From a virus, in IMG/VR virus record IMGVR_UViG_3300017780_004980, positions 1-64,000 of that record: 64,000 nt of DNA. One strand, given 5' to 3'. This document shows positions 14,212 to 51,540 of this stretch, piece after piece. Every line of letters starts with the position of its first letter. Within the stretch, counting starts at the first letter, position 1. Position numbers and translations under genes: made by a program. Below the pieces are notes generated by a model. That model saw nothing but the letters and a program-made list of their open reading frames with translations, was not told the origin of the DNA and ran no database searches.

Positions 14212-14573
14212 CAGGCGTCTCGATCCTTCTCCGCCATATAGGCGCGCTCCATTTCCCGGAACAGGGTCTCCGGTACCGCCACCCATGCGCCGAAGGCTTG
14301 GGGTCGCCCGTTCCCCGTGATGAACTGGATGGCCAGGGCCGGGTTCTTCCGGTCCTGTTGCGCCTCCTGGGCGATCTTTGCAAGCACTTGCAATTTGATC
14401 GAGAAGCTCTCGTTCAGGGTCGACTTGTTCTCGATCAGGAAGCCTGGGCGGCGGATATCCCCCTTGGCCCCCTGCATGGCCCCGCTGGCTGGCGTGGCCT
14501 GCCCGTCTAGGCGCTTGGTGGCCCGCAGCTCTGCCATACGCCCTGCGACCCCTATGAGGCCCCTAGGCGGCAT
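14211..14573 (-). CDS. Hjc-like PD-(D/E)XK endonuclease/resolvase
   Basis: GRMAE...PASGA..KGD...IENKST motif. Confidence 0.75.
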   Translation of the reverse strand: MPPRGLIGVAGRMAELRATKRLDGQATPASGAMQGAKGDIRRPGFLIENKSTLNESFSIKLQVLAKIAQEAQQDRKNPALAIQFITGNGRPQAFGAWVAVPETLFREMERAYMAEKDRDA

Positions 14574-15705
14574 TCTCCTCGGCCCCCAACACGTCGTTGC
14601 TGTCGAGCGAGACGTCCTCAGCATCCAGCAGGGCCTGTTCGATGAAGGCCTTGTGCAGCATGGTCCGGAAGTTCACGTCCCCGTAGTAGACGTCCTCGCA
14701 GTCCTTCAGCTTCTGATAGTCGGTACCGCACATGGTCCAGACGCCGGCCTTGGGGTTCTTCAGCAGCCCCGCCTCCTTCATCATCGGGTTCAGGGTGGTC
14801 CAGTCCAGAACCTCCCCGACCTTGTGGCCCTTGAAGGGCTGCATGACGATGTCGTACTCGGCCTTCTGGGCCAGGACCGGGACCTTCCACTTCTTCAGGG
14901 TGGCCGACGTGCTCTTGGCGATGGGCATGGCCGCGTTGATCTTGTTGTCCATGACGTTCGTGCCATAGAGCGACAGCCGCAGCGCATACAGGAACGGCAA
15001 GGCGTTCCCGCCGGGCGTGGTCTCCGGGGAACCATACATGACCCCGATCTTCATCCTGATCTGGTTGATGAAGATCACCGCCGGCATGGAGCCGGACCGC
15101 TCGCCCCGCAAGATAGCGTCCTCGACCTGTCCAAGGGCGAACACCATCTTACGCATCAGCTTGCCGCCGATCCGGGCGTTGAGGCCAGGCAGATCGTTCT
15201 CGGCGCTCTTGTCCATCTCGGCGGTGGCAGCCATGGCGGCGATACTGTCCATGGCGACCATCGACAGGCCCTTCGCCTGGGTGACCTTCTCGACCATGTC
15301 GACCGCCTGCTCGGCGAAGTTCGGCCGCAAGTAGATCACCTTGTCGGGGTTCACTCCCATCGAGCGGGCCCATTCAGGGGTCAGGGCATGCTCAATGTCG
15401 ATGAACGCCGGCCGCTTGTCCGGCTCCAGTTTCTGGGCCGTGGCCATGGTCTTGAGGACGAGGTTCGTTTTACCGGACCCCTCCTTGCCATATACCTCGC
15501 TGACCCGGCCCCGGGGGAAGCCGCCGCCAATGGCATAGTCCAGGGCGAAGATACCCGACGGGGACCGGTCGACGTTGACAGCGGTGATGGCGTCATAGAC
15601 CGACGCCTCGCCATAGTCGTCCTTCATCTGGGCGACGTACTGATCCAGGTCGAAGCCGTCCGGGAGGGTCGAGCCCTTCTTGGCTTTCGCGGGGGTCTTA
15701 GCCAT
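14563..15705 (-). CDS. recA: RecA-like recombinase
   Basis: GGGFPRGRVSEVYGKEGSGKT, FIDIEHAL, FINQIRMKIGVMYGSPETTPGGNAL. Confidence 0.97.
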   Translation of the reverse strand: MAKTPAKAKKGSTLPDGFDLDQYVAQMKDDYGEASVYDAITAVNVDRSPSGIFALDYAIGGGFPRGRVSEVYGKEGSGKTNLVLKTMATAQKLEPDKRPAFIDIEHALTPEWARSMGVNPDKVIYLRPNFAEQAVDMVEKVTQAKGLSMVAMDSIAAMAATAEMDKSAENDLPGLNARIGGKLMRKMVFALGQVEDAILRGERSGSMPAVIFINQIRMKIGVMYGSPETTPGGNALPFLYALRLSLYGTNVMDNKINAAMPIAKSTSATLKKWKVPVLAQKAEYDIVMQPFKGHKVGEVLDWTTLNPMMKEAGLLKNPKAGVWTMCGTDYQKLKDCEDVYYGDVNFRTMLHKAFIEQALLDAEDVSLDSNDVLGAEENAA

Positions 15706-16003
15706 TGGCGCCGGCCAGGTCGGCTTGGACCTCCTCCATGATGGCGCCGATCTTGCCGTCGATCCACTCCTTGGCGAATTCGAAGGCGGCGTCGATCTCG
15801 CTGGTCTCGACATGCAGGCCGAGCTTCACGTCCACCCGGATGTTGCCGTAGGGCTTGGTCGGCTCGGTCAGTCCGAGGGAGACCTCGACGTACTGGAGCG
15901 GCTGGGCTTCAGCCGGGATCGAGTGCTCGACGTTCTCGCTTTTCTGCTTCGTAGGCCCATCGCCGGACTGCACCATCGTCTCCACCTTTGCGTTCTTGGT
16001 CAT
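15698..16003 (-). CDS. hypothetical protein
   Basis: 101 aa with AAGGAG RBS. Confidence 0.8.
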   Translation of the reverse strand: MTKNAKVETMVQSGDGPTKQKSENVEHSIPAEAQPLQYVEVSLGLTEPTKPYGNIRVDVKLGLHVETSEIDAAFEFAKEWIDGKIGAIMEEVQADLAGANG

Positions 16004-16355
16004 TGTTCCACTCCTTCCGTAGAGCTGTGATCGTGTGGCTCAAGGCCTTCTGAGAAGCCGGGTCCTTGAACTTGAGCCGGTTGGTCCGGGCATACAAAAG
16101 CGATCCGATCAGACGGACCTGACGCTGACTGAAAAGGGCTCCCCGCTTGTACGTGCCGTACACGGTCTCGGGGATCGCGCCCCTGTTATAGAGATCATAC
16201 AGAACGTAGCGGTCAACGCCATAGAGAACAGACACCTCTCGTAGCGTCCAGCACGGGGTTTTCAGGCCAGTGTCTGGATGGAGCCGGAAGCTGTTCGGAA
16301 CCGGCATGGCCTTGCGGCTTTCGCCCAGGCCGTGCTTGTTCTTATTGCGCCCCAC
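15909..16355 (-). CDS. MerR/excisionase-like HTH DNA-binding protein
   Basis: WTLREVSVLYGVDRYVLYDLYNRGAIP...RGALFSQRQV; GTG start after GGAG. Confidence 0.6.
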   Translation of the reverse strand: MGRNKNKHGLGESRKAMPVPNSFRLHPDTGLKTPCWTLREVSVLYGVDRYVLYDLYNRGAIPETVYGTYKRGALFSQRQVRLIGSLLYARTNRLKFKDPASQKALSHTITALRKEWNNDQERKGGDDGAVRRWAYEAEKRERRALDPG

Positions 16356-50202: not shown

Positions 50203-50436
50203 CTAGACCTCGGCGTCGTCCTTGTGAACGCCCGCGTCGATCTGAGTGTCGTCCGTCAGCAGCACCCGCTCGCCACCCCCAAGGTGAACGTACGTGCCTC
50301 CCAGGCGGCGGCTCTCATGAACCTTCGGCCCGTCAGGCACGACCGGGGTATCCTGCGTTTTCGTTTCAGTCGAGGGGGTGGTCTCGTCCGTGGGGTCGTT
50401 GTCCCCCGAATTCGTGATGTTCAGGTTTCTGGCCAT
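50203..50436 (-). CDS. small hypothetical protein
   Basis: 77 aa with AAGGAG RBS. Confidence 0.7.
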   Translation of the reverse strand: MARNLNITNSGDNDPTDETTPSTETKTQDTPVVPDGPKVHESRRLGGTYVHLGGGERVLLTDDTQIDAGVHKDDAEV

Positions 50437-50438
50437 GG

Positions 50439-50915
50439 TCAGCTCCTTCCGATGGTTGGGTCGTCTTCGCGGTGGAAATACAGGACGTCGAAATACAGAG
50501 CCGCGTCAACCTGGTTGTCATACGGTCCGTCGATGTTGGTCTGTTCCCCCGTCACCTCGATGTTCACGACGAGACCACCCAGCGTGCTGTTGGCCTTCAG
50601 GACGGTCTCGGCGACGGCCAGCATGCGCTCCAGCGCCTTGGTCTTGCCCCCGCTGTCCGTGCTGTAGAAGTAGACCTCCAGGGTGCAGGGCAGCAGGACC
50701 CGCTGGAAGGACGTGGTGGCCGCGCGGGCCGCAGTGCCGCCGTAGACCCCCAGCGCCGTCTTCTTGCCCTTGGGTAGCTGGTCGAGGGCATCCCTGGACG
50801 TGACCGACCATTCCAGCCCGTAGTCGGTCAGGAACTGCTCCGCCGCCGGCGTGCCCTTCTGGGGGAATAGAGCGAGGATCGCGTCGAGCACCTGGCTCCG
50901 CATGGCATCAGACAC
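50439..50915 (-). CDS. tail terminator-like protein
   Basis: R..VLDAI, L.AN.TLGGLV, Y.H..DDP; synteny. Confidence 0.7.
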   Translation of the reverse strand: MSDAMRSQVLDAILALFPQKGTPAAEQFLTDYGLEWSVTSRDALDQLPKGKKTALGVYGGTAARAATTSFQRVLLPCTLEVYFYSTDSGGKTKALERMLAVAETVLKANSTLGGLVVNIEVTGEQTNIDGPYDNQVDAALYFDVLYFHREDDPTIGRS

Positions 50916-51540
50916 GAGACATCTCCCCCATCAAATTCTTGGCCGTCTTCTCGATGAACCGTTCGAGGCTGGCTGTGGCCACCGCCTGGCGAAGGCCGAG
51001 GCGCGGCTTGATCCTGATACTTTCCAGCAGCAGGTACAAGGGCACGATCCGCCGACCCCTCTTCTGGAAGATCAGCAGGTTCCCCTTCCGGCTCCGGCCG
51101 ACGAAGGTGTTCAACCATTGGCGGGCGTGCAGGTACTTCGGAGTGCCGTCCGGGTTCTTGGCTGCCTTCAACGGCATGGTCAGGTACTTGCCCGTCCTCG
51201 GCTTCAGGACACCCCCGGTCTCATGGATGACGAGATGAGGGGCCACCAGGAAGGCCGCCACGGTAGCCCCAAGGGCTCCACCCGTGACGACGACGCCCTT
51301 CTCTATGCTGCGTACGCCCTCGCCGGTACGGGAGGCCAACGAGGTCTCCGTGGTGGTACTGCCGCTATGTCGGGCGGCGACCTGTTTTGCAACCACTTGC
51401 AAATGGGCCCGGAGCTCCTGCTGGAACTGGGGCGTGGTGCGCGCGACCGACGTGGTCCAGCTGTTGGCCACGGTGTTCAGGCCCTGCGAGACGTCCGCGA
51501 ATTCCTTGCCGCCTATGGCCAGCCGGAAGTCGAAGTCCAT
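50908..51540 (-). CDS. tail completion/neck protein
   Basis: SRTG, IHETGG.LKP..GKYL.MPL, I.PRLG; synteny. Confidence 0.7.
   Translation of the reverse strand: MDFDFRLAIGGKEFADVSQGLNTVANSWTTSVARTTPQFQQELRAHLQVVAKQVAARHSGSTTTETSLASRTGEGVRSIEKGVVVTGGALGATVAAFLVAPHLVIHETGGVLKPRTGKYLTMPLKAAKNPDGTPKYLHARQWLNTFVGRSRKGNLLIFQKRGRRIVPLYLLLESIRIKPRLGLRQAVATASLERFIEKTAKNLMGEMSRV

Follow-up and report, generated by a model that had tools for sequence, protein, structure and literature searches.

The closest described counterparts of the element reported here, a 16-mer repeated over the genome of an uncultured phage, are the KorB operators of the IncP plasmid RK2, the ParB-parS system, Noc with its binding sites (NBS), the mycobacteriophage stoperators, and the lambda CII boxes. 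RK2 carries 12 KorB operators, and parS lies inside spo0J. In Cluster A mycobacteriophages, the stoperators are asymmetric and 13 bp long and are bound by a monomeric helix-turn-helix (HTH) repressor (L5 gp71), and the lambda CII boxes (TTGC-N6-TTGC) straddle the -35 region of promoters without a -35 consensus, some CII-dependent promoters lying within genes. The KorB operators measure 16 bp, some preceding a -35 box by 4-10 bp and others being 45 to >1000 bp distant; KorB itself is a ParB-family CTPase and global repressor that acts on remote promoters by sliding along the DNA as a CTP-dependent clamp (PMC11790492). The DNA analyzed here, termed the window, comprises the first 64,000 nt of the IMG/VR record IMGVR_UViG_3300017780_004980, about two thirds of a 97,766-bp phage record. 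The 16-mer TTGCAA-N4-TTGCAA occurs in it both between and within genes, and all in-gene copies are read as TTG CAA nnn nTT GCA. It is interpreted, with a probability of about 0.6, as a selected DNA docking site whose reading frame within genes is set by coding constraints.

The 16-mer resembles the KorB operators in being a 16-bp dyad with a promoter-proximal subset, located 6-7 bp from the -35 box here and 7-8 bp in the relative G001, compared with 4-10 bp in RK2, and in having other copies far from promoters; in addition, the same genome encodes a protein whose predicted model matches KorB best, over the N-terminal domain and the DNA-binding-domain region. It differs from them in number (25-53 sites on phage genomes of 80-106 kb versus 12 on RK2), in the half-site (TGCAA), in the share of copies inside genes (15-46%), and in the center, which is asymmetric and oriented in this phage. 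As in the ParB-parS and Noc-NBS systems, palindromes of 14-16 bp are dispersed over the replicon, often in coding sequence, and six relatives have a copy within their own ParB-like gene, comparable to parS in spo0J; unlike in those systems, the site density is far above that of parS, a subset is promoter-linked, and the sequence is unrelated to parS or NBS. With the stoperators, the 16-mer shares dozens of short-site copies genome-wide, mostly in short intergenic gaps and in one orientation, with few in genes. Unlike them, it is a dyad with only the central 4 bp asymmetric, its in-gene copies do not keep the orientation (four of eight are reversed and three have other centers), and no gp71-like protein turned up among the roughly 46 proteins scanned out of 131 called. 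The lambda CII spacing TTGC-N6-TTGC is contained in TTGCAA-N4-TTGCAA, and in-gene sites occur in both systems, but the 16-mer is located upstream of a separate good -35 box; a CII-type activator (PF05269) was absent from this phage and four relatives, the positive control having worked. The genome-wide site system is undescribed in the literature searched and is a variation on the KorB/ParB-type operator theme. Exact-sequence literature searches returned no paper describing the motif, and the papers on Rhodobacter phage RcZahn and Stenotrophomonas phage DLP3 do not mention the repeat.

Excess, codons and reading frame of the 16-mer

The phage, which is uncultured and of freshwater metagenome origin, has a complete genome with 123-bp direct terminal repeats. 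About 131 genes were called over the whole genome using our own codon-bias caller, 128 of them on the minus strand, and the G+C content at third codon positions is ~0.88. Protein searches placed the phage among siphoviruses of 80-110 kb, including RcZahn, Stenotrophomonas phages DLP3 and DLP5, Rhizobium phage RHph_TM16, and several Vibrio phages, at protein identities of merely 30-50%. No close relative was found by megablast against GenBank phages, and a peptide-pattern scan for close relatives using the primase gave no match, the nearest primases being 51% identical. The comparison set consisted of IMG/VR relatives (coded G001 and G003-G009) and the cultured phages RcZahn, DLP3, RHph_TM16, and V-YDF132.

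Over the whole genome, 19 exact copies of TTGCAA-N4-TTGCAA and five copies with one mismatch at an outer base were found, 12 of the 16 positions being symmetric; copies with two mismatches were at chance level (2 versus 1.4 expected). In the window, TTGCAA-N4-TTGCA(A) gave 34 strand-hits versus 0.00 in 100 dinucleotide shuffles, and 43 of the 50 TTGCAA hexamers in the genome are inside motif copies. Eight copies are located in genes. In a synonymous reshuffling of all coding sequences (300 rounds), 0.0 copies arose versus the eight observed, and TTGCAA hexamers numbered 3.5 versus 19.

The six in-gene copies of the window, described in a first-pass annotation of this DNA as TTG CAA nnn nTT GCA, were all found where it had placed them, with frame offset 0 on the coding strand, and their translations reproduced the peptides LQVLA, LQLLA, LQALA and, three times, LQVVA. 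Frame 0 also holds for two further in-gene copies beyond the window, one at genome position 77241, which has one mismatch and codes LQVVA, and one at 82226, which is in forward orientation and codes LQPLA. The codons are uncommon, as had been noted: TTG makes up 9.7% of Leu codons, CAA 16.5% of Gln, and GCA 3.4% of Ala, with GTT and CTT at 8.1% of Val and 6.1% of Leu, respectively. The proteome contains 11 LQx[VLIF]A peptides, of which eight are motif-coded, compared with ~2.4 expected from amino-acid frequencies. Since this excess is due to the motif alone, the peptide exists because of the DNA word, and not vice versa. Among the intergenic copies, 16 of 17 share one orientation of the asymmetric center (CCAC), while the eight in-gene centers include four that are exactly reversed (GTGG) and three that are off-consensus. 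The three LQVVA copies of the window are indeed inverted, with GTGG on the coding strand versus CCAC in the intergenic copies.

In frame 0 the 16-mer reads L-Q-(P-L or V-V)-A, in frame 1 [FLIV]-A-T-T-C-[KN] or [FLIV]-A-S-G-C-[KN], and in frame 2 x-C-N-H-L-Q or x-C-K-W-L-Q. Frames 1 and 2 thus demand Cys, which represents 0.84% of proteome residues, and frame 2 also Trp or His, so that frame 0 is favored and no special mechanism is needed. Existing peptides compatible with the motif numbered 11 for frame 0 and none for frames 1 or 2, positions needing at most one residue change numbered 49, 18, and 9 for frames 0, 1, and 2, and frame 0 accounts for ~60-67% of the tolerable positions. The forward center CCAC inserts Pro, and the reversed GTGG (V-V) is therefore preferred in genes; only the copy at 82226 takes CCAC. 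Across four further complete genomes of this family, copies within genes are distributed 22/15/6 over the three frames, and the frame-1 (A-x-x-C) and frame-2 (C-x-x-L-Q/H) copies of the relatives are sometimes placed on pre-existing zinc-finger Cys residues. On these grounds, the idea that the shared reading frame is meaningful in itself was abandoned: it is mostly a coding-constraint effect plus some luck, with no sign of translation-level function.

Placement and family-wide occurrence

Three placement classes were distinguished, namely promoter-proximal copies, copies in tiny gene junctions, and in-gene copies. The promoter-proximal layout comprises the 16-mer, 6-7 bp, TTGACC or TTGCAG, a 16-bp spacer, and a -10 box (often extended TG), with the start 68-78 nt downstream. 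These promoters are predicted, the strict sigma-70 scan detecting just the one at copy 9386 and the others being read by alignment. The distance from site to -35 box is 6-7 bp at five sites here and 7-8 bp at 14 sites in G001 (~0.4 expected), and its constancy points to a role on DNA rather than RNA. Junction copies are wedged in 0-9 nt behind a stop and 10-35 nt ahead of the following start, where a promoter would not fit. Most copies are away from recognizable promoters, the distal ones being the eight in-gene copies and the junction copies without promoter-like sequence.

The spacing of copies was more even than random in V-YDF132 (coefficient of variation (CV) 0.40) and DLP3 (CV 0.48; both P < 0.0002), with CV values of 0.61 in RcZahn (P 0.003) and 0.70 in this genome (P 0.05). 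If only the intergenic copies are counted, two stretches of 20.5 and 22.4 kb that cover the replication and tail modules are empty, and the eight in-gene copies fall there. When these are added to the fixed intergenic set, the CV drops from 1.22 to 0.70 and the widest gap shrinks from 22.4 kb to 10.3 kb; in 20,000 trials with eight copies placed at random in coding DNA, equally good values were reached in 0.09% for the CV and in 0.4% for the largest gap. This gap filling fits a genome-covering role and is the best support for action away from promoters.

The same architecture, TGCA(A/G)-N4-(T/C)TGCA, was found repeated in every closer relative, namely the IMG/VR relatives G001 (53 copies), G003 (36), G004 (23), G008 (24), and G009 (15), as well as in RcZahn (28), DLP3 (32), RHph_TM16 (17), and Vibrio phage V-YDF132 (33), and reversed-pattern controls gave 0-1 copies in the relatives. 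Several relatives carry perfect palindromes. The preferred center differs per phage (CCAC here; TTAA, TCAA, TCGA, CAAA, or CATA in others), a pattern of letters that suggests co-evolution with a phage-encoded reader. From 15% to 46% of the copies per genome are in-gene though ~90% of each genome is coding, that is, genes are avoided yet still used. In an exact 16-mer scan of IMG/VR, other contigs gave single chance matches, none of them repeated.

Several gene positions are shared among the relatives. In the ParB-like gene, a [LIV]-Q-x-[IM]-A conserved at the protein level spells the motif in six of eight orthologs; these six have the same codons, xTG CAA/CAG nnn ATT GCA (peptide [LV]-Q-x-I-A), and the middle codon tracks the center of each phage, being TTA in G001, TCG in G003, CAA in G004 and G009, and TCA in DLP3 and RHph_TM16. 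In six relatives, the C-terminal linker of the initiator/HTH gene, which cannot be aligned elsewhere along its length, includes a [VL]-Q-x-[IV]-A spelled by the motif. The primase linker has a copy at one shared column in two relatives (39% and 65% G+C), with the copy of this phage 12 codons on. The copy at the junction of the RuvC-like gene and the 418-aa gene (12745 here) is kept in at least seven relatives.

The 34-kb IMG/VR contig G005 (L043) contains no TGCAA copies; a TGATC-ACAG-AATCA-type 12- to 14-mer is present four times in 19 kb and, by its form, may represent another 'dialect' of the same site architecture. In G001, seven copies are clustered in ~1.1 kb of non-coding DNA (81577-82633; L059) together with repeated CATGTTAA-like words, and this cluster could be an origin or control region.

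Candidate binding protein and alternative explanations

The ParB-like gene of this phage (genome 74532-75479, outside the window) adjoins the terminase. Its product matches phrog_26387 (9.5e-69), has an invariant GGHHR...AA motif, and is 42-50% identical among phages sharing the half-site. All eight of the records that have 15-53 copies encode an ortholog, and two complete relatives without the gene have four and two copies. A phmmer search of the protein against PDB sequences gave nothing meaningful. An AlphaFold model predicted from 39 homologs reached a predicted local distance difference test (pLDDT) score of 85 and replaced an earlier, poor model built from four sequences (pLDDT 59). Its best structural match was KorB of RK2 (8qa9_B; Z 12.5, root-mean-square deviation (rmsd) 4.6 Å, 151 residues; model 8-221 versus KorB 52-227), and its N-terminal domain matched ParB and Noc with an rmsd of 1.5-1.7 Å and Z of 11-12. 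The conserved ParB/KorB/Noc-like protein would be the most likely binder, a tentative candidate put at somewhat less than even odds. Pfam and PHROG searches that covered ~46 of the 131 called proteins detected neither a classical repressor nor a repressor-type HTH. The Ogr/Delta zinc finger (PF04606), considered as a binder, had no matches in this phage or four relatives.

In the RcZahn annotation, a sugar/glycosyltransferase cluster is located beside the ParB-like gene. ParB-like proteins are known to activate phage thymidine dioxygenases in hypermodification clusters (PMC13229309). Phage DLP3 has a temperate lifestyle and DLP5 is maintained as a phagemid, which the authors link to two ParB-domain proteins encoded by those phages (PMC7326821). 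A second ParB-superfamily protein of the present phage, with a GmrSD_N/DUF262 domain (E 1.8e-16), is encoded in the small-gene region of the window (7167-7844).

According to the proposed explanation, the 16-mer (core TGCAA-N4-TTGCA) would serve genome-wide as the docking site of a sequence-specific, two-fold symmetric phage protein. Copies would be accommodated between genes where room exists, and in long coding stretches without such room the site would be written into genes via rare codons and sometimes residue changes, the frame TTG CAA nnn nTT GCA being a by-product that gives a tolerable, helix-compatible L-Q-x-[VL]-A. In a KorB-like mode, the protein would load at the palindromes and regulate promoters with a -35 box 6-7 bp downstream of the site, and from promoter-distant and in-gene sites it would slide or spread over the whole chromosome. 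We infer the binding, the identity of the binder, the sliding, and the output (silencing, partition, or guidance of DNA modification). In its most specific form, which we regard as speculative and rather doubtful, a ParB/KorB-like CTPase clamp of a widespread clade of 80-110 kb siphoviruses would load at 25-50 evenly spaced palindromes, some of them forced into genes, and cover the chromosome, acting as a genome-wide switch for plasmid-prophage silencing/partition or for steering the neighboring glyco-modification enzymes.

Several observations weigh against a selected docking site bound by this protein. None of the six in-gene copies of the window is positionally conserved in four complete relatives, which indicates that individual sites turn over, and we infer purifying selection on these exact six copies from their excess, not from conservation. 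The earlier proposal that selection maintains the DNA site and acts away from promoters thus stands in part: the chance expectation of zero and the in-gene copies of the relatives speak for it, and the gap filling fits looping or condensation, but the six copies themselves lack positional conservation. The location of all eight in-gene copies in frame 0 is still somewhat unlikely under the opportunity model (P ~0.02-0.04), and the three off-consensus in-gene copies may be weak sites. An asymmetric center kept in one orientation between genes is not explained by a purely symmetric binder. As to the binder, the ParB-like protein of V-YDF132, which has 33 copies, is only remotely similar (E 1.5e-27), that of G006 is about as remote although just three copies occur there, and the correlation between gene and motif is confounded by phylogeny. 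The ParB-like gene of this phage, like that of RcZahn, has ordinary codons in place of the site. A KorA-like partner or OA site was not identified, no search for them having been made.

Four other explanations were weighed. The 16-mer could be the operator of a classical phage repressor or activator other than the ParB-like protein, resembling the L5 gp71 'stoperator' system, with promoter copies controlling initiation and junction and in-gene copies blocking the elongating RNA polymerase. The uniform orientation of 16 of 17 intergenic copies relative to transcription and the many copies in tiny junctions, 0-9 nt past a stop, are in line with this, as are the temperate nature of DLP3 and DLP5 (PMC7326821) and the provirus label of two relatives in IMG/VR. 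It is nevertheless unlikely, since four to five of the eight in-gene copies are reversed, which would be intolerable for a polar roadblock, and even spacing and gap filling are unnecessary for promoter control. The protein scans described above also speak against it, and a half-site kept across very different hosts would need a highly conserved binder, while the small regulators here are orphans. A function at the RNA level, as a small hairpin (5-6 bp stem, 4-nt loop) serving as a processing site, stabilizer, or translational operator upstream of ribosome-binding sites, appears very improbable. All genes are on one strand, hence every copy is transcribed, the predicted energies are -3.5 to -7.4 kcal/mol, several copies are located 10-20 nt before starts, directly ahead of the Shine-Dalgarno sequence, and a T run follows copy 4154. 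However, the fixed 6-8 bp to the -35 boxes puts those copies upstream of the transcription start, the stems are weak, and an in-gene site with fixed codons and a phage-specific center fits a protein-DNA reading. In G008 no covariation was observed, the half-site variants A/G and T/C being independent (A-C pairs 6 versus 5 expected), in what is a weak test with one varying stem position.

The copies could also be boxes of a replication initiator, similar to DnaA boxes, with the copy in the initiator gene marking the origin, like ori-lambda, which lies inside gene O. The initiator/HTH gene bears a copy here, in six relatives, and in RcZahn (in another frame), and G007, which is without the ParB-like gene, retains it. 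The initiator genes have one copy each, neither an iteron cluster nor an AT-rich tract is found close by, the initiators have diverged so far that BLAST does not match them to one another while the half-site is constant, and 25-53 evenly spread copies are not origin-like; we therefore give this explanation hardly any weight. Just as improbable is that the 16-mer marks a covalent DNA feature, i.e., a sequence-specific hypermodification, a nick, or a packaging signal. The sugar/glycosyltransferase surroundings of the ParB-like gene in RcZahn, the activation of thymidine dioxygenases by ParB-like proteins (PMC13229309), and the motif-linked nicks of other phages (PMC11780129) would agree with such a mark, but known nick motifs are strand-specific whereas the 16-mer is a perfect palindrome in several relatives, and the constant placement ahead of -35 boxes suggests a role in transcription. 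The nick motif itself (PMC11780129) is a different, strand-specific one from another phage group. A sigma-54 promoter (GG-N10-GC; TGGCAC-N5-TTGCA) was rejected because GG is missing and the TGCA cores are 10 bp apart, not 11, and the DnaA-box and IHF-like readings were ruled out by spacing or letters.

Copies in the window and meaning for the phage family

The copies located in the window are listed in Table 1.

Table 1. Positions of the 16-mer copies in the window and their surroundings.
Position	Strand	Class	Center (coding strand) and peptide	Surroundings
14378..14393	-	in-gene	GTGC, LQVLA	Holliday-junction resolvase gene 14211-14537
20342..20357	-	in-gene	TTGC, LQLLA	codon 101 of primase gene 19659-20657; variable linker from Zn finger to catalytic core
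25584..25599	-	in-gene	GCAC, LQALA	codon 242 of replication-initiator/HTH gene 25336-26322
32168..32183	-	in-gene	GTGG, LQVVA	low-complexity tail of 158-aa gene 32049-32525; next start 85 nt downstream
43614..43629	-	in-gene	GTGG, LQVVA	codon 1140 of tape-measure gene 43228-47046
51387..51402	-	in-gene	GTGG, LQVVA	codon 47 of 210-aa gene 50908-51540 (RcZahn gp22 ortholog)
896..911	-	intergenic		right half-site 16 bp upstream of -10-like CACGAT, itself serving as -35 box
1658..1673	-	intergenic, promoter-proximal		6 bp, TTGACC, 16-bp spacer, CAGAGT; start codon 78 nt downstream
2888..2903	-	intergenic, promoter-proximal		7 bp, TTGACC, 16-bp spacer, TACGGT; extended palindrome around
4154..4169	-	intergenic; core TGCAA-N4-TTGCA intact, outer bases changed		extended palindrome, then coding-strand T run
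4669..4684	-	intergenic, promoter-proximal		6 bp, TTGCAG, 16-bp spacer, CATCGT
4844..4859	-	intergenic		no clear promoter downstream
5701..5716	-	intergenic		no clear promoter downstream
9386..9401	-	intergenic, promoter-proximal		6 bp, TTGACC, 16-bp spacer, TAGAGT; 2 nt past upstream stop
12745..12760	-	intergenic		abuts stop of RuvC-like gene 12761-13315; 74 nt before gene 11414-12670 (418 aa)
33266..33281	-	intergenic		35 nt upstream of PAS-domain gene 32583-33230
55699..55714	-	junction		45-nt junction; stop 9 nt before, next start 20 nt after
57333..57348	-	junction; one mismatch, 14-mer core intact		32-nt junction; portal gene start 10 nt downstream
63965..63980	-	one mismatch, 14-mer core intact		stop 3 nt before, next start 35 nt after

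The host-gene labels of the first-pass annotation were supported by PHROG or Pfam for the Holliday-junction resolvase, primase, replication initiator, and tape measure. No family match was found for the gene called 'holin-like' (32049-32525), and the 'tail completion' gene (50908-51540) has as its RcZahn ortholog gp22, annotated as a minor tail protein. In copy 32168, the right half-site followed by 17 nt and CAGAGT resembles a promoter, the half-site being possibly its -35 box. Copy 4154 may double as an intrinsic terminator. Copies 1658 and 2888 have extra complementary flanks (GGGAT...ATCCC and GGGTTT...AAACCC, respectively) and similar surroundings, and may be duplicated promoter cassettes.

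Contigs of near-identical strains from three public runs other than the probable source run were short (~200-480 bp) and of low depth, and among the pieces and differences listed none overlapped the four copies checked. One metatranscriptome contig joins window positions 17649 and 18156, skipping 506 bases that correspond to an HNH endonuclease ORF before the helicase gene; apparently a variant phage lacking it is in circulation. In other runs, contigs jump over 127 bases at 32327-32455, a length variation in the low-complexity tail of the gene hosting copy 32168, and 369 bases at 28954-29324, a small-gene block.

In the ORF listings, spurious ORFs begin at the TTG of the motif (window 54938-55714, 31598-32173, and 9396-9602). 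Gene callers mistake the TTG or GTG of the motif for starts, and automatic annotation of this phage family is liable to over-extend genes into the sites. Recoding of phage genes by engineers would destroy such sites unknowingly. Read as a docking site, the 16-mer is a natural example of a DNA signal overriding the choice of codons, and even of amino acids, inside phage genes, and the placement of its copies points to coverage of the whole chromosome, not to control of a single promoter. The site family is present in the cultured phages RcZahn, DLP3, RHph_TM16, and V-YDF132 and is thus directly testable. If the ParB/KorB-like protein binds it, CTP clamps, familiar from plasmids and chromosomes, would also act in phages, there in the control of an entire genome.

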